Assembly (NCBI GenBank): GCA_038087875.1
Contig: CM075996.1
Coordinates: 4,342,001-4,406,000 of the forward strand
Origin: Malacoraja senta
Taxonomy: Eukaryota
Length of the DNA stretch: 64,000 bases
Direction of reading: 5' to 3'
The position numbers and the translations under genes were made by a program. Under the pieces are notes generated by a model. That model worked only from the letters and a program-made list of their open reading frames with translations. It was not told the origin of the DNA and did not search any database. This document shows, in pieces, positions 5,491-56,065 of this stretch (the first letter of the stretch is position 1; each line of letters opens with the position of its first letter).

Positions 5491-5606
5491 GTGTTTGACA
5501 GCGGTGTGGGGCACTCCGTGGAGGTGACAAGAGAAGAAAACATTCAGGATTAAAATGATAAAAATCTGATTTAAATCGCAGAATTTTAAACCAAACCGTT
5601 ACTCAC

Positions 5607-5744
5607 TTTAGGAGATTTCAATCTTTTCTTCCCTACTACATCTTCGTCTTCAGTGTCTGAAGTCTGCCGGAACTGCAACGTTCCTGTGTTTATGTAAAAT
5701 CCTCCATATTTTGTTGACAACGAGGCTGGAACCAACTCATCATA
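5607..5744 (-). CDS. UBN2: Ubinuclein-2 coding exon 4 (HRD/HUN domain, C-terminal half)
   Basis: 138 nt, [54 protein letters not shown]. Confidence 0.95.
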
Positions 5745-5894
5745 CTGAAAAATAAAAGTAATGTTTCAGCCGGACCCTTTGGTAGTTCTAGCCGTGCAAG
5801 CTGGAATTTTGAGTCTCAGTTAAGCAGACCGGCGTACAAAGCTGAATGGGTTGCGGATGCCCAGTCTAAATTGTCTCTCGCTTGGCATCAGCAA

Positions 5895-6420
5895 GTTCAA
5901 AAGTAATAGGAGTAGAATTAGGCCATTTGGCTCATAGAGTCCACTCCGCCATTCAATCATGGCTGATCGCTGTCTCCTAATCCCATTTTCCTGCCTTCTC
6001 CCCATAACCCTTGACACCCGTTCTAATCAAGAATTTGTCTATCTCTTTCTTAAAAATATCCACTGATTTGGCCTCCACAGCCAATGAGTTCCACAGATTA
6101 ACTACCCTCTGACTCAAGAAGTTCCTCCTCACCTCCTTTCTAAAAGAGCACTCTTTAATTCTGAGGCTACATCTGGTCCTAGACTCTCCCACCAGTGGAA
6201 ACATCCTTTCCACATCCACTCTATCTATGCCTTTCATTATTCTGCAAGTTTCAATGAGGTTCCCCCCTCAACCTTCTAAACTCCAGCGAGTAGAGGCCCA
6301 GTGCTGTCAACCGCTCATCATACGCCAACCCACTCATTCCTGGAATTGTTCTTGTAAACCTCCTCTGGACCCTCTCCAGAGCCAGCACATCCTTCCTCAG
6401 ATATGGGGCACAAATGCTTA
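5895..6420 (-). mobile_element. CR1 (HER1-like) LINE 3' fragment
   Basis: ORFs 6251-6493 and 5977-6237 give APYLRKDVLALERVQRRFTR...YSLEFRRLRG and ESRTR...QRVVNLWNSL, the CR1 ORF2 C-terminus, frameshifted. Confidence 0.88.
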
Positions 6421-7139
6421 CTCTGCAACTATGTTTTGGGACTTGTCTGCGCCAATCAAAGGTTGCTTGTGCATTTCTTTCCACATTTCCCATGCAGAAT
6501 TAATCACCTCTTGTCATGACCATCATACTTTGAAGTCACGCAATTTGAAGTCTGATGAAGGGTCTCGACCTATTCCTTTTTTCCAGGGATGCTGCCTGAC
6601 CCGCTGAGTAACCCCAGCCTTTTGTGTCTATCTTCGGTGTAAACCAGCATCTGCAGTTCCTTCTCATACACTTTGAAGTCAGGTCTTTCCATCACAATTT
6701 CTTACAGTTTATTAGAAGCTATGATTATAGTAAAATCCAGGTCAAATTGCTTGACTAAAATTAACCCTGGCCCAGTTATTCACCACCTTCCTACCTACAC
6801 GTCCAAAGATCCTTTCCTTCGAACCATACAACAAAGATGACCATTCTGACAATTCATGCCAGTGATGTAACTGAACTGGAATAAACTAGTGGGAGACACA
6901 GCTAGTTCTGGACCACCTCAACAGCATTGTAGGTCAGGATGCCATCAGGACTCATAACTTTTCCTGTGCACAGTTCACTCGGTTCTTCCTTCATATCACA
7001 TGAAATAAACTGAATTATTTTGACGACCTTCTTTGATATGGGGAAGTTTGTTACTAATAGTTCAGCTATAACCACACTTATTACAATTGGTGCAGCGACT
7101 GAACAATGCAGAGAGGCCCCACACAAACATGAAATGAAT

Positions 7140-7470
7140 ATCATAAGGTCATAGGAGTAATAGGAGTAGAATTAAGCCATTCGGCCCATCAAGGCTACTA
7201 CGCCATTCAATTATGGCTGATCTATCTCTCCCTCCTAACCCCATTCTCCTGCCTTCTCCCCATTACCCCTGACGCCTGTACTAATCAAGAATCTATCTAT
7301 CACTGCCTTAAAAGTAACCACTGGCTTGGCCTCCACAGCCTATGGCAAAGAATTCCACAGAATCACCACCCTCTGACTGAAGAAATTCCTCATCTCCTTC
7401 CTAAAGGAAAGTCCTTGAATTCTGAGGCTGTGACCTCTGGTCCTGGACTCTCAACCTCGTGTAAACATCC
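7140..7470 (-). mobile_element. CR1 LINE 3' fragment
   Basis: Same 3' UTR and tail as 5895-6420. Confidence 0.75.
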
Positions 7471-7528
7471 ACTAATTCGACATTAACTAAATAGACGGGG
7501 ACTCGTTTCCCCATGGACCAATACTCAC

Positions 7529-7630
7529 CGCTTCAGAGTTGTCAATGAATGGATCTGTGTCATCGTAGCCATAACCCATGTCAATTAAATCCTGCATGCG
7601 GTCTTTCCGTCGCTTGTGGTTCTTCTGACC
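7529..7630 (-). CDS. UBN2: Ubinuclein-2 coding exon 3 (HRD/HUN domain)
   Basis: 102 nt, [42 protein letters not shown], containing the Hpc2-related GYD.xDxFIDNSE motif. Confidence 0.95.
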
Positions 7631-8100
7631 CTGAAATTAAGGCAAGTTGATCAATTTGCTTGTCATCAAGGAGACAAGGGATTACGTGTTGGAATGGAGC
7701 AAGTCAGTAGATATCCTGCCACTTTGTTGGACAGTTATCCCCCATAGGTAGCTATGCCCCGATCACTGGCTAGGTTGGCTGGGTATCCCCAACCCCCATT
7801 TATCATCGTCTGATTATCCAGGCACTTGCTCAACACAAATTTGAAAATCAACCCTTGCTGTCAGTTTAATCTCACAATCTACCCAGCAATTGCTTGGGAG
7901 AAGTAATGTATTTACTGGTCTGGGACAGAGTGAGGAAAGATCATGCCATTGGGAGAGCATTTTGTCAGGCATGGAGTTCATGTTCAGATGGCTTAAGTGT
8001 TGCCGCATTCTATCCTCTGGCTCTTTATTTCTGTAATACCAAGATCCACAGGGCACAATTAAAACCACTGCTGTACAGATATATAGATCATGTCTTCCTT

Positions 8101-8597
8101 GTCAGGTCGGGCGGAGTTCCCTCCGCCATGGGTACCATGTAATCCCGTGCTACCTGCTCCATGGTCGGATAGTTGGCGACTAAACCGTCACCCCCACCTG
8201 GTTTGCCAGGTGAGGGGGGGGGGGGGCTGTGGACCCCCAACAAGACCTGTCAAAGGGCGGATGAGTTTCTAGCGAGCCAACGGAAGTTGCGATCATTGTC
8301 GTACATGGCATTGCAAGGAACGATGATAAAGCACACACACCAAAATCCTACACTTCCAGTGGTGGAAGTCCGCAGGAACTGGAGGATAGAGATGTGTGGT
8401 GCGTCCGTCACCGTTCCTGTCGGAAACCAGCACCACTGTGGCCCCCTATCAGTCTGAAGAAGGGTTTTGGCCCGAAACGTTGCCTATTTCCTTCGCTCCA
8501 TAGATGCTGCTGCACCCGCTGAGTTTCTCCAGCATTTTTGTGTACCACCGTGTCACTAATGTTTTCAACGATGATGAATGAATGAATGAGCGAATGA
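8101..8597 (+). mobile_element. Structured SINE-like retroposon, copy 2, with a nested Penelope-derived repeat at ~8449-8545
   Basis: Same 5' start (GTCAGG) and 3' end (TGTTTTCAACGATGATG..) as 2607-2886; possible TSD TCTTCC(C)TT at 8093-8100 and 8599-8607. Confidence 0.7.
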
Positions 8598-9088
8598 ATC
8601 TTCCCTTCAATGTCAGTATTGGTTGAGATGTCAAATTGAGGTCTTGGGTGGACGTAAATAATCAGTTGACATCTATCCCTCAACCAACAGCTGATTATGA
8701 AGTTGTTTGTGGGAGAGGGGTCTTGCTGTATGTAAATTGGCCACCACATTTCCTGCGTTATAATATCACTACATTACAAAAGTATTTCATAAGTCTCAAA
8801 GTACTTTTGAAAAAACTCAGGGATGATAAAGATGCAAGTTTATTTGCTTGAAGAAAATTGAGATATTTCACCTCAATAAAAGATATTGCATGGAAACATA
8901 GAAAGATAGGCACAGGATTAGGCCATTTGGCCCTTCGAGCCAGCACCGCCATTCAATATCATGGCTCATCATCTAAAATCAGTACCTCGTTCCTGCTTTC
9001 TCCCCATATCCCTTGCTTCCTTTAGCCCTAAGAACTAAATCTAACTCTCTGTATTGTACCACTTGCACACAACCGTGTATACACTTAC

Positions 9089-9181
9089 ATATTTTTCCTC
9101 AAGTTTCTTTGCAAGAGCTTCCACTTCTTTCCTTTCTTTCTCTTCATTATTGAAAGGAACATCAGGGTTGGTTGAATTTCT
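9089..9181 (-). CDS. UBN2: Ubinuclein-2 coding exon 2
   Basis: 93 nt, CAG/GTAAGT; RNSTNPDVPFNNEEKERKEVEALAKKLEEKY versus recalled human DPFNDEHQERQEVEMLAKKFEMKY. Confidence 0.93.
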
Positions 9182-10354
9182 CTGTTGAAACAAAAAAAAG
9201 AGATTTGTTGAGATGTACGCAAGACAGACGAAGCACCTGAAATGAAAGTGCTTTCCTGTCGCCTCACCTGGGTACCTGCACTGAATTCCCACTGACGAAC
9301 TAACCTACAGAGACCACAGGAGATCCAAGGGTGGCTTATTGGCACAGCAGCTCCAGCAACCCGGTCAATCTCCACCTTTGGTGCCATCGCTATACATACG
9401 TTGTACAATCCCACATGTTCCCCATTTCACGTGGGTCGCTTCAGGGTAATCCCGTTTCCTCCCACACTCCAAAAGATACGAGGGATAAGTCCATAGGTTA
9501 ACAGACCACTGTAAATTGTGACCAGTGTGTAGATGAGTGGTAGAAATTGGGGGGGGGGGGGAAAGGGGAGATTAACAGGGATGTGGGGAGAATAAGATGG
9601 ATCATGGAAGATTAGTAAAAAAACTGGATGCTTGATAATCAGCTGAAGGGCCTGTTTCTGTGCATTGTCTCTTGATTACTATATAATGACTTACATGATC
9701 TCCGATGGGAGCAGCTACAACAACTAAACCAAATAAGTGTACAGCTGGAAGATAAAATAAATCAACTCTTATCTCCTGAATGTTATGAGCACCTGGTACT
9801 CCTCACCCATCTTGGAGAAGGACTACAATTGACTCCAATATGCATAACAGGATCACAGTGACAACAGCAGCAGCCCAAGGGACCATCGGATGGTCTCCTT
9901 TTTTATTGCTATGATGGAAATATTTCAAAGAATCTGTAAGCTGCAATTTAGCAGTTACACAACACATGGTGCTTTTCTTAAACTGGACTAAATAAGTGGA
10001 AGATCTTGCATTCCCAACAATATTTAGCAATCTGTTCAAATTGGAATGGCAAGTCCTTCCCAAATTAATACAATGAACTAGAAGTAAGGCTGCATTTGGT
10101 TTTCACACACCTATGAATAACTCCAATCCCAAGAGTCATCATAATCTCAGAGGTGGTCCTGCAAATCAATCCAAACAGACATATGAGACTGCAGGTGCTA
10201 GCATCTGGAGCAACAAAATATACTGCAAACTTGCAATACAAGCAGCATCCGTGGAGGCTCTCAATCCCTCTGTCTCTGCCACCTCCATCTCCACCCCTTT
10301 CCACCATCCGCAATGACTGCACCCTCCACAACTCCTTGGTACACTCATTCTTTC

Positions 10355-10822
10355 AATAGACAACAGACAATAGGTGCAGGAGTAGGCCATTCGGCCCTTC
10401 GAGCCATTCAATGTGATCATGGCTGATCATCCCCAATCAGTACCCCGTTCCTGCCTTCTCCCCATATCCCCTGACTCCTCTATTTTTAAGAGCCCTATCT
10501 AAGCTCTCTCTTGAAAGCATCCAGAGAACCGCCTCCACCGCCCTCTGAGGCAGAGAATTCCACAGACTTACCACTCTCTGTGAGAAAAAGTGTTTCCTCG
10601 TCTCCGTTCTAAATGGCTTACTCCTTATTCTTAAACTGTGGCCCCTGGTTCTGGACTCCCCCAACATCGGGAACATGTTTCCTGCCTCTAGCGTGTCCAA
10701 ACGCTTAACAATCTTCAATGAGATGCCCTCTCATCCTTCTAAACTCCAGAGTGTACAAGCCCAGCTGCTCCATTATCTCAGCATATGACAGTCCCGCCAT
10801 CCCGGGAATTAACCTTGTAAAA
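10355..10822 (-). mobile_element. CR1 (HER1-like) LINE 3' fragment
   Basis: ORF 10437-10718 (AGNMFPMLGESRTRGHSLRIR...QRVVSLWNSLPQRAVEA) and a (CTATTGT)n tail. Confidence 0.88.
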
Positions 10823-10834
10823 ACCTATCCTATC

Positions 10835-11430
10835 CAAACCAGCCCCTCCCCAGGTACTTTCCCCTGCAACCGCAGGAGATGGAACGCGTGTTCCTATGCC
10901 TCCTCCCTCACCTCCATCCAGGGAACCCAGCAGCCCTTCCAGATGAGATAGAGGTTCACGTGCACCTGCTCTAACCTCACCTGCTGCATCTGGTGTTGCC
11001 GATGTAGCCTCCTGTATGTCGGTGAGACCAAGTGTAGACTCGGTGACTGTTTCGCTGAACATTTGTACTCAGTCCGCCAAGGACTGCTGGACTGCTAACC
11101 ATTTTAACTCCCCCCCCCATTCCCATGCTGACCTTTCTGTCCTGGCCCTCCTCCGATGCCTCTCCCTCTGGCTTTACAATTCCACAACTCTTCAAACCTG
11201 TCTCATACCTCCTGTTCTGATCTCTGGCCTTTGTTCCAACCGGCTACCTGCCAAAAAAAAAAATCCTCACCAGTGTCGACTAATTATCTGCTACGCTTTG
11301 TCCTGCCTCTCCATTTTTCCCGCTTTCTTCTCCTCCCTACAATTAGTTTGAAGAAAGGTCTCGACCCAAAACGTCACCTATCCACGTCCTCCAGAGATGT
11401 TGCCTTACCTGTGGAGTTACTCTGTGTCCT
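10835..11430 (+). mobile_element. Penelope-like element fragment (GIY-YIG endonuclease) with degenerate terminal repeat
   Basis: Translates to PGTFPCNRRR.NACSY...FTCTCSNLTCCIWCCRCSLLYVGETKCRLGDCFAEHL, the CCHH/GIY-YIG region typical of PLEs, with a premature stop; followed by the hammerhead-like terminal repeat at ~11345. Confidence 0.85.
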
Positions 11431-14407
11431 TTAAATCTATCATGTTATTGTAGCTACCCATCCTAAACCTATCAACCTACGCAAGGTCCATTGTCCTCTT
11501 CAACTGCACATCCAAATACTTTTTTCAAGCCATGATGATATAACCCATGAATACCCAGAAAAGGTTCAGAATCCAATAGCAAAATGCTGCTGATACCGTA
11601 AATATGAAACAAAGCAGAAAATGTTGGCAACTCTACACACGTCACACAGCATCTGGTGAAAGGTCATCAATGGATGCTGTCCGATCTGCTGGGCATAACC
11701 AGTAATTTCTGGGGAAGGGAGTCTGAAGAAACATTGTCTGTCCATTCTTTCCACAGATGTCGCTGAGTTCCTCTAGCATTCTGGGCGTTGACCGGTATTT
11801 TCTGTTTTATTATTGATGTAAGATAATCCTTCATTTCTATAAGCAACGATACCAGTGATGTAAGCAGTTAGATGATAGACACAAAATGCTGGAGTAAATC
11901 AGTGGAACAGGGGAGAAGGAAGGGGCCACGTTCTGAAGAAGGGTCTCGACCTGAAACGTCACCCAGTCCTCCTCTCCAGAGACGCTGCCTGTCCCGCTGT
12001 GTTACTCTCGCATGTTGTGTCTATTTTCGGTGTAAACCAGCAACTGAAGTTCCTTCCTACACAGTTCGAAGTATTGTCGATTAGTTAGCAAGGGGATGTG
12101 AGAAATAAACCGAGAAAGAAAATTAACCTTTATTATTAATGTTTATGTGTCATTCCTAACTGTCACTGTATGTCATGTTCTCACTTGCGAGTGGAGCACC
12201 AAGGCAAATTCCTTGTATGTGAATACTTGGCCAATAAACGTATTCATTCATTCATACATACATCAAGTGCCAGAGGAAGCCACATTTTTTTTTAAAGCAT
12301 AAAGATAACTTTTGCATTAGTGTCCACAATAGAGAAGTCTTTGGCCAAACTTTATGTGCATGTGACGGAAAATACTGGCAAAACGCAGTGAGCCTGGCAG
12401 CATTATGGAAAGATAAACAGTTTAACATTTCAAGTTTGGGAATGTTCATCAAACCTGCTTAGTTTTCCTGGCATTTTCTGTATCTATTACAGATCTTAAA
12501 AAAAAAAAATTAACTTCAGATTTAAAAAAATTGTTTGTGTAAATTGTGAAGTTGCCAATGCTTTTCATAGTTAAAAAGCAAAACAAAATCAATAACAATA
12601 TCTAGGATAATAAAAGATGCTTGGGCAGGATAGCTGGCAAAAAACATGCACTAATATAAACTAACCACAGCATGTGCTGGCATCTACCAGAAGAACCAAA
12701 AATCTAAGTGCAAAATAGGAAAAAAAAAAATGTTTGGCTGAGAGAGATAAGAAAAATAAGCTTAAATGTTAATGACGTGCAGTAGACTAATTGTACACCA
12801 AATGCTTCCTAATGCATCTGGTAGTTATTAACAGGGAGAACATTTCACAAGAATCAAAATGTCACAGCACACTAGTCCCACAATATCAAAACGTTCAACA
12901 CTCAGTAAAACCACAAACTATATCGGCAAGGGTACAAGAATTTTAACCTCGACTGATGGCAAAAAATTAAACCTGATTTGTCCTGACATGTAAGTTAATT
13001 CAATGGGGAAAAATAATTCCACAGCCTGTTCAACTTCTACCACCTGAATTTCAAGAAAGTTTTTGCACAAGAAAATATCTTGACCACAAATCATTTTAGG
13101 AATATTAATGAAAGTCAGAGGCTATTCACCCCTTCACTATTTTGCCGTTTAATTAGATCCGGGCTGATCTGTCCAGCAACTTTATTTTTCCAAATCATAA
13201 CACAGAAATCAGGGCTGACACTCCAGTACAGTGCGAAGCGGCCCGACCCTAAACGTCGCCTATCCACTTTTTCCAGAGATGCTGCCTGACTCGCTGAGTT
13301 ACTCCAGCACCTAGTATCATTTAAGCAAGCGTTTTGTTTTCTTAGATGTAGCATTAAACTAAGATCAGTTTTGCTGTCTCAAGCAAATATAAAATAATTA
13401 TTTGTACTATTCATAAAAAACCAGGATATCCCCTGCATCCTTGCCAGTATTTATCCTCCAGATAACTCCTGTAAACAGGTCATTATAACATTGCCACTAG
13501 TGGGCCACAACTACGCATTAACTGACTGCCAACAAATCCTACAACAGGATCTGCCTCAAAAGAGCTCTAGGATGTGAAAAGTATTATATGAAAAGCAAAG
13601 TTTTTTTTTTGATAACCAGTTATCAGGATCTACCTCCTGACAAAGCCACGCTGATGATTCAGACATTTAATTCAATGATCTACGATGACCCTCCTTGTTA
13701 TTTCAGAGGGAAGCATTAATTCAGCTGTCAACCAAGACAGAGACAAAGCAATGAGGCAGCTCTACAGAATAACAATGCCGGCAGCAGTGGAATTCTCCAG
13801 CAATTTCTCAGTGAGAGAAAGCATTGTTCAAAGCAGCAACTTATTAACTCATTTCCCGCTATCTCCTATTGACCGCTGTCTGATCCAGATCTCAAAGCTC
13901 CACGTTTTGATTACAGTGAAATATTAAACACAAAGGCCAAAATGGTCACCGTTCAATGAGGAAAAATAGTCAACTGCAATTTGTGTTAAGAAGATGGGAA
14001 ACAGGCTGAAGCCCCTTTCTGGAAGGACAAGGAGTCGGTTTGGATGAATAAGGTTTGGAGTTGGTAGGGATGGCTTGGGGTATTTGGAGAATCGGTGGTA
14101 AGGAGAAGATTTGTCATCATTCAGGATAACAAGGGCCCATGGTAGGAGATGAGAGTTTAACTGGGACAGTGGAATAATCCACGGGATGGCAATGGTACAG
14201 AAATCCTTGGAGGAAAGAAGATTAGAGGGCATAGTGGAAGTAGCCGATTCTCCTGAGGGGGATGGGATAAGGTTACAGAAGGGATGTGGGTGAAAGTCAG
14301 GGGGGGGTTTCAAGGGGTTGTTGACATGATGATGAAAGTGACGTATAGGATGTTGATGAATGGGGTAGAGAGGTGGCGATGTAGTGGGGTTCATGGGGAG
14401 AGGAGGA

Positions 14408-14690
14408 CAATAGACAATAGGTGCAGGAGTAGGCCATTCGGCCCTTCGAGCCAGCACCGCCATTCAATGTGATAATGGCTGATCATCCCCAATCAGTACC
14501 ACGTTCCTGCCTTTTCCCCATATCCACTAACTGCTATTTTTAAGAGCCCTATCCAGCATTCTCTTGAAAGCATCCAGAGAACCTGCCTCCACCGCCCTCT
14601 GAGGCAAAGAATTCCACACACTCACAACTCTCTGTGAGAAAAGGTGTTTCCTCGTCTCCGTTCTAAATGGTTTACCCCTTATTCTTAAAG
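14408..14690 (-). mobile_element. CR1 LINE 3' fragment
   Basis: Near-identical to 10355-10640. Confidence 0.8.
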
Positions 14691-15799
14691 GGGAAATGGG
14701 GCAAATAAGGTGAAAGGAGAAAGTGACACGCCAGGGCCAATGGATGGGTCAACTCACAGAGTTCAGATTTATCATAGGTTCAGGTTTATCATTGTCAAAA
14801 AATTCTGTCAACATGTTGGACGACGACAGAAGCCAACAGCGAGTTACATCGTCAGACACACGAACGAACGAACAAGTAGCAAGGTACAGTGAACAGTTTT
14901 GTTTCGCATACAATTCAACCAGATCAGATCTACCGTACATAGATACAATCATGTTCATAAGTTCTCGGAGCTGATTTAAGCCATTCGGCCCGTACTCCGC
15001 CATTCAATCATGGGTGATCTATCTTCCCCTCTCAACCCCATTCGCCTGCCTTCTCCCCATAACCCCTGACACCCTTAGTAATCAAGAATCTGTCAATCTC
15101 CACCTTAAAAATATTAATTGGCTTGGCCTCCACAGCCATCTGTTCAGTTCAAACTCAAGTACACCAGATGGAGCAAAGCGGAAGATACAGAATACAGTTC
15201 TCAGCATTATAGCGCATCAGTTCCTTGGACAAAGTCCAATGTGTGCAATGGAGTAGAGGTGAGCCAAACAGTATCCTAGTTTATGGAAGGGCCCTTCAGA
15301 AGCCTGATTCCGGAGGGGAAGAAGCTGTTTCTGAGTCTGCTGGTGCGCACTTTCAAGTGGCGACAGGATCTGAATAGCATGGGGATAACTCATTGGGGTC
15401 AATGGCGAGGGGGGTTGAAGAGTATGATTCAGTGCATCAACGGGGCTTTCAACCCAGCATGATCAATGGGGACGATGGAGGAAGGGTAGTGAAAATGACA
15501 ACGGTGTATGCTCCATCGGTCAATGTAGATCCAATTCCGGCAAGTCAATGGTGATCATGAGTTCAGTTTAGTTTATTGTCACGTGTACTGAGGTACAGTG
15601 AAAAGCTTTCGTAGTGTGCTAACCAGTCAGCAGAAAGACAATACATGCTTACATAAGGAGGTGGAGTGAAGGGAGTCATCCAGCACTGCCAATGGGAAAC
15701 ACATCTTGGCAGGGTCAACAAAGGGGTGATGTTGGGTTCAATGGGTGGCGTGATATGGGAATGATAGCAGGATCAGGGAGGTGGGGGGGGCATAATGCA

Positions 15800-16520
15800 G
15801 CAGTGTGATGAGGTGGCTGCAGCGCAGTGAGTTCAATGGGGCACTCATCTCAGCAAGACAGGGACGGAGTGATAGCCAGGATCAATGGGTAGTGTAACTC
15901 CAGCGAGGTTTAAAGCGGTGAAGGCTGATTCAAAGGGGAGGGGGAGAGAGCATGACAAGGTAAAAGTTCAGAGTGAGCAATGGGGAGCACATCTCAGTTG
16001 GACTTGGTGAGAGTCGATGGGTAGCGTGGCTCCAACTGAGTTAAGTTCAGTTTAGATTATTGTCATGTGTACCATGGTACAGTAAAAAACTTTTGTTGCG
16101 TGCTAACCAGAGTTAAAGAGAATGGTGGCTAGATCCGGGGGGGGGGGGCAAGTTCATGGGATCATCGGGGGGCACATCTCAGCTGGACTGGGAGAGAGGA
16201 GCAATGATGGAGGGACAGTGCGTAGAGTGGCTCTCGCCGAGTTAAATGGAATGATAGACACAAAATGTTGGAGTAACTCAGCGGGACAGACAGCATCTCT
16301 TGAGAGAAGGAATGGGCTGGATCAAAGGGGAGGGGGCAAGTTCAAGGGAACAATCGGGTACACATCTCAGCTGGACTAGGAGAGTGGAGCAACGGTGGAG
16401 GTTCAATGGGTAGCGTGGCTGTAACTGAGTTAAAGGGGATGATGGCTGGATCAAAGGGAGGACTGTTCATGGGATCTATGGGGTGCATATCTCAGCTGGA
16501 TCTGGAGGAGGGGTCACACT
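15800..16520. repeat. Degenerate tandem repeat (unit ~130-190 bp) in UBN2 intron 1
   Basis: Recurring CACATCTCAGCTGGACT...GGGTAGCGTGGCT...GAGTTAAAG...GGCTGGATCAAAGGGGAGG units near 15845, 15988, 16173, 16361 and 16487. Confidence 0.65.
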
Positions 16521-16710
16521 GTCGGGCCAGGCTGGGGTGACAGCAAAGGCTCCTCTAGTATCTTTGGTCGACAATGCCATCAATGGAGGCCTGGGAGATG
16601 AATCAATGACAGTCTGGTGACTGGAGCAGCAATTGTCCCCACGCAGCCGGGCAGGGGGGAGGGGGGGGGGGGAGAGATGCACGGAGCTGCCCCGCGGAGC
16701 TCACTCCTAC

Positions 16711-16929
16711 CTTGACCTCCCGCAGCAGCTCGTTGTAGTTGTACTCGGTGTGGCTGCGGTCACTGGGCTCGCTCAGCTTCAGGCCGAAGCGCACGTTGCC
16801 CTGGTCGCCCCGCTCCTCTCGCCGCTTCTTCTTGGGGGCGGCGGCGGCGGCGGCGGCGGCGGGAGGCGCGGGCAGGGCGTCGGGAGGAGCGCTCACGGTG
16901 TTGAAGGCCACCCTCCGGGGTTCTGCCAT
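16711..16929 (-). CDS. UBN2: Ubinuclein-2 coding exon 1
   Basis: ATG at 16929 (gacATGG) in a CpG island; MAEPRRVAFNTVS...VRFGLKLSEPSDRSHTEYNYNELLREVK then donor GTAGGA. Human UBN2 begins MAEPRRVAF (recalled). 219 nt, phase 0. Confidence 0.93.
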
Positions 16930-17175
16930 GTCGGGGCGGGCCGTGGCCGGGGCTGTGGCCGAGGCCGGGGGCCGGGGGCCGGGGGCCGGCGCCAGGCCGC
17001 TGAGCCGCTGCAAGCGCGATCCAACCCCCCCCTCCCCTCACAGAGCCCACACCAGCGCCGCCATCTTGCGCGTCCCGACGTCACGGCAATGCGTGCTCTA
17101 CGTCACGCCTCTACGCGCTCACGTCACGGCGGTCTAACAGTGCGTCACGGCAACCCTGCCTTTGATGATGTCATA
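16930..17175 (-). promoter_or_regulatory. UBN2 CpG-island promoter / 5' UTR with YY1 motif and clustered CRE half-sites
   Basis: GCCGCCATCTTG (YY1 consensus) at 17057-17068; CGTCAC at 17079, 17101, 17122 and 17143; high CpG density. Confidence 0.7.
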
Positions 17176-17245
17176 GTAAGTAAGTAAATTGTATTTCTAT
17201 GGCACGTTTAAATCAACTCGCGTTGAAACCAAAGTGCTTTACATA

Positions 17246-17295
17246 AAAGAAATAATAAAAGAAATAATAAAAGAAATAATAAAAGAAATAATAAA
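17246..17295. repeat. Tandem repeat (AAAGAAATAATA) x ~4
   Basis: Seen directly in the sequence. Confidence 0.9.
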
Positions 17296-17664
17296 GTTTC
17301 CATACATCCATAGAATTTTTTTTTTTAAATCTGAAAAATGACCTAACACATTATAGAATTCAACTATAAATCACACAATAGAATTTAGCTGAAAGACTTT
17401 GCCCAAGAATTTTGTGTTTAAGAAGGAACTGCAGATGCTGGAAAATCGAAGGTAGACACAAGTGCTGGAGAAACCCAGCGGGTGCAGCAGCATCTAAGGA
17501 GCGAAGGAAATGGGCAACGTTTCGGGCCGAAACCCTTCTATTTTGCTTGGTAAATAGTTTTCTTGGTAACTGGCTTACATGTGATGATGAGACAGGGTAT
17601 AGAAATGAGTTTCATCAACTGACCAAATGGTGCCAGCACAGCAACCTGACTCTCAATGTCAGTA

Positions 17665-17905
17665 ATTTTAGTTTAGAGATACAGTGCGGAAACAGGCATT
17701 TGGCCCACCGAGTCCGCACCGACCAGCGATCCCCGCACATTAACACGGCACTAGGGACAATTTACTTACACCAAGCCAATTAACCTACAGACCTGTACGT
17801 CTTTGGAATGTGGGAGAAAACCGAAGATCTCGGAGTAAACCCACGCGGTCGCGGGGAGAATGTACAATCTCCGTACAGACAGCACCCGTAGTTGGGGTCG
17901 AACCC
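17665..17905 (-). mobile_element. V-SINE (HE1-like), 5'-truncated
   Basis: Matches the body and (CTAAA)n tail of 23094-23400. Confidence 0.75.
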
Positions 17906-18837
17906 AAGGAACGGAAGACCAAGGAACTGATTGCGAATTTTGGAAGAGGACCCATTCGCGGGAGCTTCGATCGCCCCAATTGCGGAAGTTTTGATTGCCC
18001 CGACCGTGGGAGAAAAGGAGGGACAAGTTATTTGCCTTCCATCACAGTGGGGAATGTGAGGTCGCCGAAAAAACAAGATGGATGTGCTGCCTGCACTGGT
18101 GAGGACTCGGAGGGAGTGCCATGAGTGCAGTGATCTCGGTGTTTTGCGGGGACATGGCTCCTTGAGGATATCCCAGAGTCTAGTGCGAGTGTGGACGGCT
18201 TTCTGACTGTTTGGGCGGGCAAGGACTGCAGAGAGAGTGACAGCAGTAGGTACAACTCTGGTCACATCATGGTGAAGGAGCGTGTTTGTGGCCCGGACAT
18301 TGAACTGATGGCTGGGTGCCCTGGGGATTCTCACACGCCGTTGTGGTGGCTGTTTAAGTCTATGTTTAATTTTTATGTGGTTATGTATCTTCTAGCTTTT
18401 TTGTATGACTGTTGGCAAATCAAATTCTTGTATGCTTACATACTTGGCTAATAAATTAATCACAATTACAATTAAATTAATTACAATATGAGGAGAAAGC
18501 AGGAACGGGGTACTGATTTTGAATAATCAGCCATGATCATATTGAATGGCGATGCTGGCTCGAAGGGCCAAAAGGCCTATTCCTGCACCTATTTTCCATG
18601 AACAACCATTCTGAAACAAACATCCCTCTTCATCTCTGGTAGTTAAAAGCATTTGCAGCCTTGCACTTCCTCCATAGCTGTAACCCCTATACTCTGCATT
18701 CTGTTTCTTTTTCTCGCTTGATATACTTATGTATATGGTGTGTTACCTGGATAGCACACAAAACAAAGTCTTTCACCATATTGTGGTTTGGGGGGAAATA
18801 ATAAACCAATACCAAAACGAGTGTCAGAAACTAATAT

Positions 18838-18843
18838 TTTATT
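18838..18843 (-). terminator. Candidate polyadenylation signal of TTC26
   Basis: AATAAA on the minus strand ~1.2 kb after the stop codon, followed by GT/T-rich sequence. Confidence 0.5.
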
Positions 18844-20056
18844 TACATAAAATAAGTTATAAATTTTTGTTCAAAGGTATTAATTATACAAGAGGAATGT
18901 AAATACACGAAGAAAGGCATTCGGAAAACTGTAGTGTCGTTAATATCAATATTGTTTTAAACAGAATTTTGTGGGATAGTGTTCTCTTCGAAGTGTGGAT
19001 TAGTATGGTCCTTCAGGCATGGGACACACCCTGGTGCCTCACAAATAACCAGTCTTTGCCTGCATGTCTTGACGGTGTCTGCAAGCTACTCCACACAGAA
19101 CACACCTTACAACACAGCGCACCAGGGAAAGCAAGTACAAGCACACACCCATAGCTAGTCATGCGGCACTGTACATTATTTTCCAGCTCTGAGCATCTCC
19201 CTGTTCCCAACCGCATAGTTGGCGATCGTCTCAATGAAAATGATTGAGCACTCCATGTGGGTTGCCTGATGCCTTTCAGATCCATTTCTGCCGATTCATG
19301 GATTTGCCTTGCTTATTCTATCCATTTAGTGGGTGGAAAACCATGGAGGTGGTGGGTGGGGGAGCAGCTTAAAGCTGTAACTGGCGTCCGTAGTCATTTT
19401 GTTGCTGGTGCTAGATTCCTGCGGCCACCTTTGTTTTAAATGATAATCTTGCTCATCCTGCCACACTGGCTGACACACAGCCCAATCACACACACACTCA
19501 CATGCAGTGAAATCAGTGAGCAGAAGGCAGATGCCTGTGGCTCCGAATGAAACTTTCCTGTTCATGCTTTAATGGGTGAATGGGGGAAGGGAGTGGCGTT
19601 GACAACGCTGCAAAGGATATGAAGGAGGTTTTGTAATTTATGAACCCACTTGAGAACCATGCAGCCCACAAGTGCTGACCTGCAACCTTTCTCTGTTCAC
19701 ATTAATGGACGTGGAGAATAATATCGGCGGCTGTGCGATTGAGTAGCACAGGTGCTGAAATATTTGATCCATTCTCCATCCGCAAAGTGAGGATGAGAAA
19801 AAAAGGTGGAATTAAAAACTGTATCGAAAGCAATTTAAATGTAAATTACTTTTAGCCATTGTGAAAGAAGCAAGTGTTTTCCCCGCAGAGGGCCACGTTG
19901 CAATATTTCACTTTGTGCGAACTCTTTGTTCTTTGGGGCCCTGTAATGACAGCCCACGGGTTCCTGGGAAAAATCAGAAACAAACCATTTAAAGCTACAG
20001 CTCCACCCAGAGTGTCAGCCTAATTAATTCATTCATTGCCCTTTCTCTCACCACAT

Positions 20057-20168
20057 TTAGATAGCCACTCGGTTGTCTTTGGCCCATTTCTTTAGGGTGC
20101 GGATTATGTATTCCACCTGAGGATTCCCAGTATTTCGAAGGAGATGGAGAACTTCCCGCATGGTCTCC
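20057..20168 (-). CDS. TTC26: TTC26/IFT56 exon 18 (last coding exon)
   Basis: ctag acceptor; ETMREVLHLLRNTGNPQVEYIIRTLKKWAKDNRVAI* matches the recalled human C-terminus. Confidence 0.96.
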
Positions 20169-20289
20169 CTAGGAGAGATGCACAATAAGTCGGTCAGTGG
20201 TTTATATTTCAGCAGCGCGTAGCTTTTATTCTGCCTCTTCCCTGGTAACCTGGTGGCCTCTGGGTTGATGGGAACCTGCTGCAGAACGA

Positions 20290-21212
20290 CCGTAGATAGA
20301 CACACAAAGCTGGAGTAACTCAGTGGGTCAGGCAGCATCTCTGGAGAAAAAGGAACAGGTAATGTTTCTGGTCCAGGCCGTTCTTCAGACTGAGAGTCAG
20401 AGAAAAGAGAAATGAGGGATATAGGCAGTGATATAAAGAGATATCGAGCAAATGAATGAAAAATGTGCAAAAAAATAACGATGACCAATGAAACGATCCA
20501 TTGTTAGCTGTGGGCCAGGTGATAATAGAAACATAGAAAATAGGTGCAGGAGTAGGCCATTCGGCCCTTCAGGCCTGCACCGCCATTCAATATGATCATG
20601 GCTGATCATCCAACTCAGTATCCTGTACCTGCCTTCTCTCCATACCCCCTGATCCCTTTAGCCACAAGGGCCACATCTAACTCCATCTTAAATATAGCCA
20701 ATGAACTGGCCTCAACTACTTTCTGTGGCAGTTGGGTTCTAATGAGTTATACAGACTATGAAACTCACCAGGACGACCGTGCAGCTAGTACAATAACCAG
20801 GGATAGAGAGAGAGGGGATGCAAGGGTTACTTGAAGTTAGAGAAATCGATATTCTTACTGCTGGGTGGTAAGTTGCCCACGCGAAACATGAGGTGCTGTT
20901 CCTCCACTTTGCATTTGGCCTCACTCTGACAAGGGAGGAGGTCCAGGAATGAAAGGTCAGTGTGGGAATGGGAGGGGGAGTTAAAGTGTTTGGCAACCGG
21001 AAGATCACGTCGGCCAAGGCGGACAGAGCGAAGGTGACTGTAGTTCTGCGGTGACTGTCGGCGCTTCCGGTCGAAACTGGGTCTGAGGAAGAGGCTCGAC
21101 CGGTAGCGTCACCTATTCCTTTTCTCCACAGATGCTGACCGAACCGCTGTGTTACTTCAGTATTTTGTGTCTCGTTTCGGTGTAAACCAGCAACTCCAGT
21201 TCCTGCCAACAC
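20290..21212 (-). mobile_element. Penelope-like element 3' end with inverted terminal repeat, interrupted by a CR1 fragment (~20526-20735)
   Basis: Minus strand ~20830-21010 encodes the PLE endonuclease C-terminus (..CQSEAKCKVEEQHLMFRVGNLPPSSKNIDFSNFK*); terminal repeat at 20290-20395 (-) and an inverted copy at ~21080-21212 (+). Confidence 0.75.
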
Positions 21213-22551
21213 AAGTGTCTGTACCAGGTCTTTGAACGGGATTTTGAATCCATTCCACTCACCCTGTTATTTCTGTTTAGTCCTACAGCTTCTCCTTTTA
21301 AGTAAAAAGTTTGAGTATTTTAATTCTGCTTCAACCCTCTGCCCCAATCATGTGGTAAATTACATCATCACCCTTACCTGTATTAACCCCCCCCCCCCCA
21401 ATCATCTCTCTTCTAATTCTTCTATCAGTTATTTATAAATTTGGCTCATCTGATCATTCCGCGACTCCTGTAAATGTTTCTTCCTACACAGACTGGGCAG
21501 TTTTGCTTTCCCACCCCTGAAAGAAAAAAAAAAGGTCAAGGGTGGGTTTAAGGGGAACAAAACCAGTTTCTCAAGGCTTGCCAAGTAACTGATCTCTGTC
21601 ATCTATTGAAGCTGACCCTGATATTACCCTGGTCAAAATAGTCCTGGCACTCACTGAATCCATTCACTGAACTGTCAGCGAAACAACAATAGACCCAACG
21701 TTCTTTAGCCCTTGCCTTTTGTTGGTGCTCCCTCCACAAGATGTCACCACTGGAGGTGAAAGTTCCCAGACCCCTGCTGACCTTCGAGAAGCTGCAAGAA
21801 AGCAGCTGGCTGTGGCTTTGTCACAAAACCCTTGCCTCCATTACTTCACTTTGAGAGGGTGGAAAGCACAGTGAGGTGGGCTTGACCTTCTCGGTAGCCC
21901 ACAAGGAGCAGGGCTGCAGCAGATCACCCACTGTGGGGAGAGAGAATCCCAAGCATGAACCCACGGCCACTCAGAACACCACAATGCAAACCATACTCCC
22001 CAACTCCTGAAAGGCAGGGTCATGGTTTACTTGCTGTTCTGGACACCCCAATGCAGGAAAGATGTGGAGACTTTGTGAGAAGGTGCAGAGGAGGTGTACC
22101 AGATTGCTGCCTGGATTAGAGCATTTCAGCTGCAGGGCGAGGTTGGATAGACTTGGATTGTTTTCTCTAGAACATCAGAAGGAGAAGGAAGACGATAGAA
22201 GTATATAAAATTATGAGGGGCATAGATAGGGAACAGTCAGAACCTTTCCCCCCAGGGTGGAAATGGGATTGCCGTAACGGGCTGAGTGGCCTTCTTCTAT
22301 GTCAGAACATACGAAGAGCCACGACCAGCCAGCTACGGATCAAAAGCCAGGAATGGGAAGTCCACCTTTGGCCAACATGGAACATGATGCACTGTGAGGC
22401 TTCCTTCTGCTGTAAATTTCTATAATTCTATCTTTGGATAAAACATGGGCTAATATAAAATCATAAACATTTGTAATAGATGAATGGCATCTTATATAGA
22501 TCTTATATTAGATTTTAATATTTAACATGAGCTATTTATACTGATACGTAC

Positions 22552-22685
22552 TTTGGTTCACGGCCTGCAAGGATCATTTGGAAGATACCAACGCAAGCTC
22601 CACGCTTTCCCTCCCAATATTCCGGATTTGGATCCAGGCGCTCAAGAACATCAAAAGCTTTCGCAGCATAGTAGAACTGTCCCAT
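22552..22685 (-). CDS. TTC26: TTC26/IFT56 exon 17
   Basis: 134 nt, [53 protein letters not shown]. Confidence 0.96.
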
Positions 22686-22941
22686 CTGGAAAACAAGCAT
22701 CACAGGGAGAATGTACAAACTCCACACAGAATCCGCTGTGGTGGATACTTATGTTAACTCTTATGTATTTGTGTGTCTTGCTGCTTTTTTTTAATGGCTG
22801 TATGGTAATTCGCATAATACTGTACCTTAATTGGTACGTGACAATAAAAAAACCTTTGATAGGCACAAAAAGCTGGAGTAACTCAGCGGGTCAGACAACA
22901 TCTCTGGAGAAAAGGAATAGGTGACGTTTCAGGTCAAGACC

Positions 22942-22995
22942 GGGGTGGGAGATTGCAACCTTCACGTGGTCCGCCCTGTTTCGACGAATGCAATC
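22942..22995 (+). ncRNA. Predicted minimal HDV/CPEB3-like self-cleaving ribozyme
   Basis: P1 GGGGUGG/CCGCCCU with G1-U wobble, P2 GAUUGCA/UGCAAUC, P3 ACC/GGU, L3 UUCACGU, minimal P4 U-UUCG-A, J4/2 CGAA with the catalytic C at 22985. Folded by eye; activity not tested. Confidence 0.85.
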
Positions 22996-23080
22996 AACCC
23001 GGCGTGCACAATCAAATAAGATCAAATAGAACAAGTTGTCGTACAACTTTAGGCTGTGCACGCCATACGCAAGAAGAAGA
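22942..23080 (+). mobile_element. Short retroposon headed by an HDV-like ribozyme, copy 1
   Basis: 11-bp TSD AGGTCAAGACC at 22931-22941 and 23081-23091; (AAG)n tail; second copy at 55531-55673. Confidence 0.88.
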
Positions 23081-23093
23081 AGGTCAAGACCCT

Positions 23094-23400
23094 TAGTTTA
23101 GTTTTGAGATGCAGCACGGAAACAGGCCCTTCAGCCCACCGGGTGCGCCCCGACCAGCGATCCCCGCGCATTAACACTATCCTACAGCCACTAGGGACAA
23201 TTTTTACATTTACCAAGCCAATTACCTGTACGTCTTTAGAGTATGGGAGGAAACTGAAGATCACGGAGAAAACCCACGCAGGTCACGGGGAGAAAATACA
23301 AACTCCGTACAGACAGCACCCGTAGTCGGGATCGAACCCGGGTCTCCGGCGCTGCATTCGCTGTAAGGCAGCAACTCTACTGCTCTGCCACCGTGACCGT
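23094..23400 (-). mobile_element. Full-length tRNA-derived V-SINE (HE1-like)
   Basis: Pol III A box (GGTGGCAGAGCAGTAG) and B box (GGTTCGATCCC) on the minus strand, conserved core GGTGCTGTCTGTACGGAGTTTG, CR1-like tail. Confidence 0.85.
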
Positions 23401-46985: not shown

Positions 46986-48224
46986 CTGGGATAAACAAAA
47001 AAGAGTTTTTGAAAGACAAACTCAGTTTAAATTATTAGAAAAAAATGTTTAAACTCTTATGGATTCCAAATGCAGCAGCACATCTTTTGTATGGAAGCTA
47101 GACACAAAATACTGGAGTAACTCAACAGGACAGGCAGCAGAGAAGGGTTCTGGGCAGAGACTCTTCTTCATGAGGTTCACAAAAATGCTGGAGAAACTCA
47201 GCGGGTGCAGCAGCATCTATGGAGTGAAGGAAATAGGTAACGTTTCGGGCCGAAACCCTTCTTATGATGCTGCTGCACCCGCTGAGTTTCTCCAGCATTT
47301 TTGTGTACCTTCGATTTTCCAGCATCTGCAGTTCCTTCTTTAACTCTTCTTCATGATGTCTGTACACTGTGGTGGTACCTTTACGCAAGCACTGGAATTG
47401 AAACGGAGGGCGGAACACCAGAACCTTTCAAGATCAGGAAAGCATTACTGATCTTTGGGCTGGTAAATCCACAAATCTGATAGATTTTGCTAAAAGCTCT
47501 TAAAAAGCAGGGGCTGGTAAGAGAATTCTAAATGTCCCTAAATTTGGAGAAGGTTTCATTAGTTTGGAAAATAGAAAACATAACGTCTTTAATCAATAAG
47601 GGAAGGAGAAACAAAGCAGGAAGCTGCAAACCAGTTTGTATTACATCCTCCGCCAGGTAAATGTTAGAAGCTATTATTAAAGATGTTATAGCAGGCCACT
47701 TAGAAACAGTCAACATAATCAGACAAAGACAACATGGTTTTGTGATAGTGAAATTGTGTTTCACCAGTTTATTGTTGTTTGAAGATGAAATGTGCTGTAG
47801 ATAAAGGGAAACTACTGGATGGTGTAGCATCATAGGTTATTGAATAAAGGTTAGCTTGTAGGAGATACCAAGGAGAGACGAGAGAGTGACATGAGCTGGT
47901 CTCAGAGCTGACATGGACATTATGGGCTAAATGCCTCTTTACATTATGAAACCATTCTGTAATTCAGACAAAGTTATCATAGACAAAATATGAACAAGAA
48001 TTGGCTATACTATCCTTCAATGCACTTCTGCTATTAAGATCATGGTTGACCTGTTTAACTTTTTGCATCAGCCACGAGCAAATTATTTGCAATCCTGCCT
48101 CTGTGTCCATCTAGAATATCTAGGCTAATATCTTAATAATCTAGTATTAAGAGAGTTCCGAAGTATAAGAGATGCTGTCTTTTGGCAGAGGTTTTGAAAT
48201 GAACGTGATTTTCTCTCAAGTTCT

Positions 48225-50091: not shown

Positions 50092-50656
50092 AGCTTATTG
50101 TCTGCCATGCTACGATGATCTCTGCCCTTACGTGTGCTTCTGTCATGCACAACCATAAACAGGCACCTCAAAGCACTTCTTCTTATTGAGTCCACACACA
50201 AGATTAGAAGTTGTTCAGCCAGAGCTGAACACACTTCTCGGCATCTGCATACAATGGTGTCTGTCTTGCGCTTCTTGTGCGTGGTGGTGGAAAGATTGGT
50301 GGAAACAGGGCTGCGACGTGAACGCTCTTTCCTTGACCCCTTCAAAGCATTAGAGGGATACTACTAAATCCATTGGCAAGCTAACAAATCATTGTTAACA
50401 TTTTGTCCCAGGCTAACATACCTCAATATTGAAGTAATAGTTACACTCAATTGGCTCCAAATTGTTCCATGTTGTTTTCATGCTCGACTCTCCAAACGGA
50501 ATCATTTTATCATGATTTTATCATGGTGCAAAATTACAAGGTTAAAGGAAGAAAGCCTATCAGCTTCACACAAAAGAATCACACTTTGATTTGCTTATTA
50601 CCCAAGTCCCTAAGTATATATGTATTAGCTGCACAAATTATCTGATGTAGATTTAC

Positions 50657-54185: not shown

Positions 54186-55255
54186 CCCCAGGTGCCATAA
54201 ATCATGATTGTGCCATAAATCATGTTTTCAGTTGAGCTCTCTTTTCTGAGTTAGTTAAGCTTAAGCCTTAAGTTTCTGGATATGAAGTACACATTACTTT
54301 GCTGGAGTACACAAAAGTACTGGAGAAACTCAGCGGGTGCAGCAGCATCTATGGAGCGAAGGAAATAGGCAACGTTTCGGGCCGAAACCCTTCTTCAGAC
54401 ACTTTAACACTTTGCTGGAGTAACTCAGCGGGACAGGCAACATCTCTGGAGAGAAGGAATGTGTGATGTCTTGATCTGAAACGTCACCCATTTCTTTTCC
54501 AGTTTCCTTCCGCTGAGTTACCCCAGCATTTCGATGTAAATCAACATCTGCAGTTCCTTCCTACACATTTCTTTACGAGCTGTTGTTCAATGGCTTCTCC
54601 TCCACACCTTTCTTAATCAGACCACTGGGTTCATTACTTTATTATGTGACATTTAATTACAACAAGATAAACTGTAGAAATAAAATGTTATGCCCATTAT
54701 GGTCCATTAATCTATGCGGCAACGTGCTTGCCATCTGCTCCCAAATGCTTTTTAATTATAAATAAATATATTCATCTTTGCCAGGATTCTTTGTATTTCT
54801 TCTCAGCTTCTCCAAAAAAATTAGTTTCAGGGCTGCTTCCACTGTCATCGATAACTTCAAAGTTTTGCAGTTTGACCTTCCTGACGTTTGCCCCCAGCAA
54901 GTGCCAGTTTTTCCTTTGTTTGAATCTTTTAAATGTTGCTATGGTTTCCCTTTGCTTGTCTTTATTGTGAACATAAACCCTTTGCAGAAAAGTTTCTGAC
55001 ATGGGAGCGGGTACTGCTATATTCAATCAAATGAATTCAGCCCCGCAACCGCTGAAATCTCTGAAGAATTTTAGATGCTACATTAGCTCCACTTCATTCC
55101 ACCCTCTGCTTGGCTGGTGTTGTGCACTTTGTCAGTTAAACCTTCTTATTCGTTCCTCAACTCATCTTGTTTCTCTTTTCCAGGCCTAATTATGATTCAC
55201 CCCTCTTTTTCAGACTTTGTGTGTAATATCAGAACAGCCAGTACGACTGGCTGAT

Positions 55256-56065
55256 AATAGACAATAGGTGCAGGTGTAGGCCATTCGGCCCTTCGAGAAA
55301 GCACCGCCATTCAATGTGATCATCCACAATCAGTACCCAGTTCCTGCCTTCTCCCCATATCCCTTGACTCCGCTTTCTTTAAGAGCTCTATCTAACTCTC
55401 TCTTGAGAGCATCCAGAGAACCGGCCTCCACCGCCCTCTGAGGCAGAGAATTCCACAGGCTCACAACTCTCTGTGTGAAAAAGCAGTTCCTCATCTCCGT
55501 TCTAAATGGCTTACCCCTTATTCCAAAACTTCTTCTTCTTGCATATGGCGTGCACAGCCTAAAGTTTTAGGACAACTTGTTCTATTTGATCTTATTTGAT
55601 TGTGCACGCCAGGTTGATTGCATTCGTCAAAACAGGGCGGAACACGTGAAGGTTGCAATCAATCTTCCATCCCATTCTAAAACTGTGGCCCCTGGTTCTG
55701 GACTCCCCCAACATCGGGAACATGTTTCCTGCCTCTAGCCTGTCCAAACCCTTAATAATTTTATATGTTTCAATAAGATTCCCTCTCATCCTAAATTCCA
55801 TGGTATACTAGCCCAGTCGCTCCATTCTATCAACATATGACAGTCCCGCCATCCCGGGAATTAACCTTGTGAACCTACGCTGCACTCCCTCAATAGCAAG
55901 AATGTCCTTCCTCAAATTTGGAGTCCAAAACTGCACACAATTCTCCAGGTGTGGTCTCACTAGGGCCCTGTACAACTGCAGAAGGGCCTCTTTGCTCCTA
56001 TACTCAACTCCTCTTGTTATGAAGGCCAACCTGCCATTCGCTTTCTTCACTGCCTGCTGTACCTA
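55256..56065 (-). mobile_element. CR1 (HER1-like) LINE 3' fragment, interrupted by the ribozyme retroposon
   Basis: ORFs 55808-56050 (LYRALVRPHLE.CVQFW.P.LRKDI.A.E.VQRRFTR) and 55592-55801. Confidence 0.9.
55531..55673 (-). mobile_element. Short retroposon headed by an HDV-like ribozyme, copy 2 (ribozyme 55673-55616, mutated)
   Basis: Reverse complement of 22942-23080 with few changes; TSD ATTC(C/T)AAAACT at 55520-55530 and 55674-55684. Confidence 0.88.

Follow-up and report, generated by a model that had tools for sequence, protein, structure and literature searches.

Family 1, to which the insertion at 55531..55673 belongs, is a bipartite, internally deleted derivative of a Vingi-like LINE, composed of about 77 nt from one end of that LINE and about 40 nt from the other, and it is likely that a predicted self-cleaving HDV-like fold, beginning at the first base of the element (G1), sets its 5' end. 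In the window (i.e. the whole stretch of DNA that was analysed, 64,000 nucleotides), the two copies of family 1, their target-site duplications (TSDs) and the host of the second copy are placed as follows:

22931-22941 and 23081-23091: TSDs of copy 1, identical, 11 bp
22942..23080, plus strand: copy 1, 139 bp, with two differences from the family majority and all ribozyme pairs intact
55253..56060, minus strand: 3' fragment of a CR1-type LINE that hosts copy 2 and is split by its insertion, recognised from empty-site paralogs and translation
55520..55530, plus strand: left TSD of copy 2, 11 bp, with one mismatch to the right one
55531..55673, minus strand: copy 2, a 143-bp non-autonomous mini-Vingi retroposon of family 1
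55674..55684, plus strand: right TSD of copy 2, 11 bp

Copy 1 is 95% identical to copy 2 over 132 nt and is the only other copy found in the window by BLAST. The coordinates, the orientation, the 32-kb spacing and both TSDs that the first-pass annotation had given for copy 2 were all recovered when re-read from the window sequence. Excising copy 2 together with one TSD gives back the sequence of three paralogous LINE fragments of the window (at 10626, 34965 and 62194), in which the empty site is present, and since both TSD copies carry one base that is absent from these paralogs, the duplication is real. The host flank translates as the C-terminus of a CR1-type ORF2, so that both the translation and the empty sites place copy 2 within a LINE fragment, as had been claimed, which we take from its motifs to be CR1. 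The copy-specific TSDs and the empty sites in host paralogs likewise bear out the mobility of family 1, and copy-specific TSDs combined with a variable 3' simple-repeat tail are what is seen in non-LTR retroposons inserted by target-primed reverse transcription. The further idea that the family is younger than the host CR1 holds for the insertion of copy 2 but not for the family, which spans a range of ages, given that copies from a blind sample of the genome are 86-99% identical to copy 1. Sequencing runs of six organisms contain at least half of copy 1's sampled words, while the unique flanks of the copy 2 locus occur in three other organisms; none of the contig pieces listed there spans the insertion.

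The proposal that insertions of this family share a fixed 5' start, rather than being randomly truncated, was examined on 38 independent copies picked regardless of their 5' end, and the histogram agrees with it: 36/38 start at G1, 2/38 at nt 2, and none reaches further 5' (i.e. in 0/38 was further shared sequence present upstream of the start). These copies comprise 27 from a search with the last 63 nt as query (40 of 153 candidates scored and 30 retrieved, less copy 1 and one sequence from each of two pairs of duplicates), 6 from the blind sample (110 stretches of 10 kb from large contigs only, 1,098,400 called bases) and 5 from the flanks of 200 other search loci. A whole-element search (40 of 1,871 candidates scored, 30 retrieved) favours full-length copies and was left out of the count; among the 29 other copies of this set picked by likeness, one (L026) is truncated at about nt 8. 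A TSD call of 8-14 bp ends within three bases of G1 in 34 of the 38 unbiased copies. In the contigs of one sequencing run, which is labelled RNA and flagged as probably DNA, the top 5' loose end is again 22942 (254 contigs, compared to 24 and 4 at the other places listed), and the summed contig depth across this edge falls 80-fold, from 1.08 million to 13,000; the run is probably of the same species (one difference in 283 flank bases) and is therefore not independent of the assembly. The 3' loose ends of family 1 contigs, on the other hand, lie at several positions, and the (AAG)n tails are variable in length.

That two copies per 64 kb point to an abundant family is correct as far as the abundance goes, with approximately 10,600 genome copies (95% range 3,900-23,100, from the six copies in the 1.1-Mb blind sample), but the window is denser than the genome average of about 5.5 copies per Mb (the probability of two or more copies being 0.05). 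Summed contig depth, which is no copy-number measure, suggests a total above the blind-sample estimate.

A fixed end alone is no proof of cleavage, both because a 139-nt template may just be copied to its end and because an internal promoter would likewise set the start; the claim that the fixed end fits a ribozyme-defined one is therefore upheld for the G1 start itself and has to draw on the fold for the rest. Copy 1 parses under an HDV-like descriptor without any mismatch, with a 7-bp P1, a 2-nt J1/2, a 7-bp P2, a 3-bp P3, a 7-nt L3, a 7-nt stretch instead of P4 and a CGAA junction, in a total of 54 nt, and the head of the parent LINE parses without mismatch in P1, P2 and P3, compared to 0/200 shuffled sequences. 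The nested double pseudoknot, the G1 pair and a P1.1-compatible L3 are present in both copy 1 and parent, the change in P1 between the two keeps the pairing (U-A in the parent, U-G in the element), and the predicted catalytic C is conserved as the first base of CGAA in the element and of CTAA in the parent, in accordance with the catalytic role of C57/C75 (PMC9901934). Families 2 and 3 (see below) and five more Vingi-like heads also parse under this descriptor, with helix sequences that differ among them; it failed on the heads tried from five other groups (L354/L355, L356/L359, L357, L362/L365/L380, L262/L264/L268/L276) and on L344 and L345. No Rfam ribozyme model matches family 1 in the window at E up to 1, and none matches the parent heads L389 and L390 at E up to 5; the models expect a P4 and other helix sequences, and they do match sister families. 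The folding energy of the whole element is not significant (z -1.2 and -1.6) by a method that cannot form pseudoknots, while the 3' half taken by itself forms a long stem (z -3.3, 0/200 shuffles). A 10-bp inverted repeat at 23001-23064, also present in copy 2, pairs the end of the 5' part with the 3' part and closes this long stem, and by eye family 2 has a similar arrangement. Self-cleavage of the family 1 fold just 5' of G1 is a prediction, and the ribozyme reading rests on the coincidence, across several families, of the fixed end with the G1 of a paired fold.

It is conceivable, though unlikely, that the fixed 5' end of the same bipartite element is mainly due to an internal promoter in the first ~77 nt, with a fold of little or no cleavage activity. 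The 77 nt of L1Tc/NARTc serve as promoter and ribozyme alike (PMC3383444), family 1 retains about the same length of its parent, and the copying of a short template runs to its end no matter what sets that end; what speaks against it is that the helices are preserved despite different sequences from family to family, all of which begin at a P1-paired G, and that the C at the catalytic position is kept in parent and element. The junctions provide a further point. Reverse transcription of a capped RNA is expected to leave an extra 5' G, as in L1. The element directly abuts the TSD at 41 of the 66 junctions and is separated from it by 1-3 additional nucleotides at 21, the other 4 being without a TSD call; a lone extra G at G1 occurs in 0/62 of those with a call (one extra stretch ends in G), so there is no sign of a reverse-transcribed cap. 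In addition, 6/27 copies picked by their 3' end have each lost a different stretch of 4-15 nt that begins at nt 18-28, with two deletions elsewhere in nt 1-76 (binomial p 0.0002, before correction for an interval chosen post hoc), which fits reverse transcriptase skipping the folded core, and broken folds not founding lineages. These three signs (the P1-paired G across families, the missing extra G and the deletions) are indirect evidence for cleavage rather than simple initiation at a promoter. Immediately upstream of G1, 54/66 family 1 copies have a T or C, and the TSDs mostly open with A or G, which suggests either that the nick is made 3' of pyrimidines or that microhomology is involved at both ends.

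The parent of family 1 is a LINE some 2.8 kb long, now decayed, in which endonuclease and reverse-transcriptase (RT) domains are recognisable. Two loci, L383 (2,800 bp) and L384 (2,824 bp), have their own TSD each, begin with the 5' part of family 1 and carry its final 38-44 nt, followed by the tail, at the other end; copy 1 matches them with nt 2-77 and 101-138 (L383) and 9-78 and 95-138 (L384). Nucleotides 1-77 of copy 1 are 92-94% identical to the parent loci L383, L389 and L390, and the last 38-44 nt of the element 89-93% identical to the parent; for copy 2 the values are 85-89% in the 5' part, from nt 11-14 on, and 90-91% to the 3' ends of L383 and L384. The parent was reached with the endonuclease region of a sister LINE as query (150 of 658 candidates scored, 40 places retrieved), being absent from the first 20 extra Vingi-like loci and found in the next 20; a scan for AAG tails in the retrieved loci recognised no parent fragment. 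Pieces of L381 match Pfam Exo_endo_phos_2 and RVT_1 and are 32-49% identical to the 1,014-aa ORF of the sister LINE. By Pfam on L381 and on the sister copy L288, the parent thus has a single APE endonuclease-RT ORF without ORF1, and no RNase H domain was found in L288 or in the L381/L384 pieces, as in the Vingi clade, which has none (PMC13708176). The coding region begins about 100 nt past the ribozyme, and its frame is broken in every copy seen; all four parent loci seen at length are decayed or rearranged (e.g. L381 has its last bases disrupted and L382 is rearranged). One further locus, L367, has a family 1 head that leads into the 5' UTR and coding region of a LINE, and that UTR gave 30 matches from 28 candidates, all scored.

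The parent starts vary over ten loci (3 at nt 1-2, 4 at nt 5-10 and 3 at nt 43-65), partly because five of them (L382, L385, L387, L388, L389) are 5'-inverted insertions, in which the 5' segment is joined to an inverted piece of the body; of the uninverted ones only 2/5 start at nt 1-2. An inverted 5' segment is what is expected of twin priming, as in L1. The RT of the parent is 43% identical to that of the sister LINE, versus 29-33% to Nimb-like and RTE rows. In a tree of 18 in-genome RTs (18/23 candidate rows being long enough), the Nimb/I-like rows are set apart (100/99) and the ribozyme-headed Vingi-like families form an open fork. The label Vingi-like rests on this 43% RT identity and on the resemblance, at the 5' end, between the sister LINE and the printed sequence of Vingi-2_Gav.

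Could another LINE have moved the element? An abundant RTE family of this genome also ends in (AAG)n, and RTEs are known to spawn bipartite elements (PMC5786205). An RTE mover is nevertheless very improbable, as both ends of the element match the Vingi-like parent directly, while the RTE bodies at 50 DUF6451 loci (families found by scoring 150 of 772 DUF6451 candidates) have no similarity to it apart from one match, which is a separate inserted copy, and one RTE 5' UTR shows no likeness by eye. RTE was thus rejected as partner, one of three RTE families sharing the AAG tail and no other sequence. These three families (L091-L140) end in (AAG)n in one case and in (GTAA)n in another, and the third is presumably BovB-like. 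Nimb/I-type LINEs, the top Exo_endo_phos_2 matches, were rejected as well, since the 30 loci examined (from 150 scored among 32,292 candidates) contain an ORF1 and match none of the three mini-families. Those at L221-L250 are young, with an ORF1 and open frames of 1,277 aa in many copies.

Least probable of all is that family 1 is an ordinary RNA polymerase III SINE with a start that resembles a ribozyme by chance. Such a SINE would also be short, abundant and fixed in its start, and family 1 has no internal run of four T, yet there is no match in it to the A- or B-box by the familiar consensus and no Rfam small-RNA match in the window; moreover, its head is the parent LINE's own 5' end, with a fold that is absent from shuffles.

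The Vingi-like LINE that headed the parent search is one of several relatives of family 1 in this genome. This sister LINE (L281-L290) is about 3.13 kb long and young (copies 95-98% alike) and has an AAG tail; L288 contains one open frame of 1,014 aa with endonuclease and RT matches only. Two further mini-families exist, one of them with a copy in the window:

50176..50340, minus strand: family 2 copy, 165 bp, with a P4-less fold, a 6-bp P1, a CPEB3-type P3/L3, an (AAG)n tail and a TSD of about 8 bp

The Rfam CPEB3 match within this copy (50289-50351) has 27.6 bits, below the cut-off, and the head of family 2 is 84% like the 3.13-kb LINE over 37 nt; its search gave 40 scored matches of 1,681 candidates, and no direct parent of this family was found. 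Family 3 (40 of 2,066 candidates scored) is about 190 bp and has a P4 and a CPEB3-like P2 (L154:8692-8881, from a descriptor scan of retrieved loci); L341, L370 and L371, which belong to another Vingi-like LINE, match its 5' part, and L341 its 3' end as well. A T stands just before G1 in most of its 20 top copies, in which query selection may be a bias. The blind sample held two copies of family 2 and one of family 3.

More Vingi-like families are found at L342-L380, with HDV-like heads of varied P3, L3 and P4, the head of L372 giving weak matches to Rfam HDV models; in one group a 352-aa frame recurs, and many of its copies lie on small contigs. At the 5' junctions of L288, L355 and L363 the first 15-30 nt of the ribozyme head are repeated in tandem, which suggests re-initiation of the reverse transcriptase at a structured end. 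Further decayed mini-families, at L255, L259, L262-L266, L268, L272 and L274-L276, carry older CPEB3-like heads that include P4 and precede short stretches of non-coding sequence. Elsewhere in the window, at 47191-47291, a hairpin with 24-bp arms is made of two opposed pieces of a common short repeat, and its sub-threshold Rfam matches (psbJ, MIR172) are probably due to chance.

The sister LINE provides the connection to the CPEB3 ribozyme. Its head scores 63.8 bits to the Rfam CPEB3 model RF00622 (cut-off 35), and in a genome search this model gave 51 matches among 59 scored, of which 39 are at or over the cut-off and the top ones head the 3.13-kb LINE. The 5' ends of Vingi-2_Gav, Vingi-4_Crp, Vingi-2_SPur and Vingi-1_BF, as printed in the supplement of PMC5786205, all four show the CPEB3 layout by eye, and that of Vingi-2_Gav equals the Rfam CPEB3 consensus at 51/53 positions outside the P4 interior (also by eye). 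The 63.8-bit score suggests that the mammalian CPEB3 ribozyme originated from Vingi. More generally, it seems probable, if somewhat less so than the account of family 1, that the Vingi clade starts with self-cleaving HDV-like ribozymes whose derivatives include P4-less 54-nt forms in ~10,000 copies to an animal genome, and that the CPEB3 ribozyme would be a domesticated Vingi 5' end. The main text of PMC5786205 does not mention CPEB3, and the list of ribozyme-bearing clades given there has six entries, Vingi not among them; the part of PMC8256844 on CPEB3-related sequences in sea urchin, lamprey and lancelet does not name Vingi either. In the open-access literature covered, no published Vingi-CPEB3 link was found. 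Relative to the literature covered, the ribozyme on Vingi, the P4-less fold in an animal retroposon and the CPEB3 link, all three as predicted from sequence, would be new; family 1 itself may already have a Repbase or Dfam entry.

The closest precedent for family 1 is NARTc, in which 77 nt from the start and 30 nt from the end of L1Tc are retained; the L1Tc ribozyme cleaves before +1 (PMC3383444). NARTc and RIME, like family 1 with its ~77 + ~40 nt, have lost the interior of the parent LINE and preserved its termini, and as in Pr77/L1TcRz the G1 of an HDV-like fold is the first base of the element. Unlike these, family 1 lives in an animal, is 139 nt rather than 263 nt long, ends in (AAG)n rather than poly-A, has no P4, and is active by prediction only. 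Vingi is the sister clade to Ingi (PMC13708176), and parent and sister LINE resemble Vingi in having a single endonuclease-RT ORF, no RNase H and a length of about 3 kb. Internally deleted derivatives are on record for Vingi-1_EE (cited in PMC5786205). The 5' end of the sister LINE is closely alike, by eye, to that of Vingi-2_Gav (3,128 nt), whereas family 1 differs from the printed Vingi heads in the sequence of P1, P2 and P3 and lacks P4. The R2 SIDEs of Drosophila are likewise ribozyme-headed, non-autonomous and derived from a LINE by internal deletion, but they occupy rDNA sites and use the R2 machinery (PMC3414825), while family 1 is dispersed, with TSDs. Family 1 and the CPEB3 ribozyme (RF00622) are alike in the L3 sequence, the GU that follows P1 and the CGAA junction. 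The model itself does not match family 1, and the CPEB3 ribozyme is moreover a conserved intronic locus with P4, whereas the Vingi-like heads of this genome are mobile and high-copy. In its architecture (no P4, a catalytic C in J4/2, about 55 nt) the fold resembles drz-Mtgn-1 and the theta ribozymes; such minimal HDV-like ribozymes are described as occurring almost only in gut phages, often beside tRNAs (bioRxiv 10.1101/2023.06.13.544163), unlike the one of family 1, which heads a eukaryotic retroposon of ~10,000 copies.

Under ribozyme-set 5' ends, a source copy would be transcribed within a longer host RNA, from which the fold would cut just 5' of G1 and so release an uncapped RNA of unit length. 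The endonuclease/RT protein of the parent would recognise the 3' end and the (AAG)n tail in trans, as the shared ends suggest, and insert the RNA by target-primed reverse transcription, with TSDs mostly of 9-14 bp. Copy 2 would have acquired its mismatches in P1 and P3 after such an event. Its parts, from the descriptor parse and from identity to the parent loci, are:

55593..55673, minus strand: 5'-derived part (parent LINE nt 1-77 in copy-1 numbering; by identity to parent loci)
55616..55673, minus strand: predicted HDV-like ribozyme without P4 (descriptor parse)
55673-55667 with 55640-55634, minus strand: P1, mismatch at 55670
55660-55654 with 55622-55616, minus strand: P2
55653-55651 with 55643-55641, minus strand: P3, mismatch at 55642
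55650-55644, minus strand: L3
55626-55623, minus strand: J4/2, predicted catalytic C at 55626
55576..55592, minus strand: junction segment, about 17 nt
55531..55575, minus strand: 3'-derived part, ending in the (AAG)n tail (by identity to L383 and L384)

The junction segment seems to repeat the final bases of the 5' part. The changes that had been named for copy 2 (a P1 mismatch, a P3 mismatch and a 4-nt duplication) are all present in the alignment to other copies, but the list overlooked C41T and C103A. From the majority of up to 67 other copies, 29 of which were chosen by likeness to copy 2 (by which counts of shared variants are inflated), it differs at nt 4, 8, 28, 41, 103 and 127. G4A, the P1 mismatch, is shared with 3/67 other copies, while G28T, the P3 mismatch, occurs in 0/61; C41T, within the short loop standing in for P4, is also found in 16/67, and C103A in 0/66. 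The duplication, whose exact position is ambiguous because MAFFT and pairwise alignment place it differently, lengthens the fold from 54 nt in copy 1 to 58 nt, and is probably harmless since it lets P2 gain one pair in the parse. Copy 2 otherwise parses with the one mismatch each in P1 and P3. In a mutational scan of the CPEB3 ribozyme, P1 was more sensitive than P2 or P4 (PMC9901934), and given its P1 mismatch copy 2 is therefore likely to be impaired, i.e. a poor self-cleaver and a dead-end copy.

Copy 2 alone is ordinary, being one of ~10,000, and the interest lies in the CPEB3 link and in the minimal fold. An abundant animal retroposon, whose parent LINE is known, is now seen to begin with a P4-less HDV-like fold, and with this parent in hand both cleavage and trans-mobilisation are open to direct assay, for which the thousands of naturally mutated copies form a ready sequence-activity series. 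Vingi elements are under development as gene-writing tools (PMC13708176), and a natural template of 139 nt shows which ends suffice for mobilisation. The sister elements, finally, make the origin of the CPEB3 ribozyme testable.
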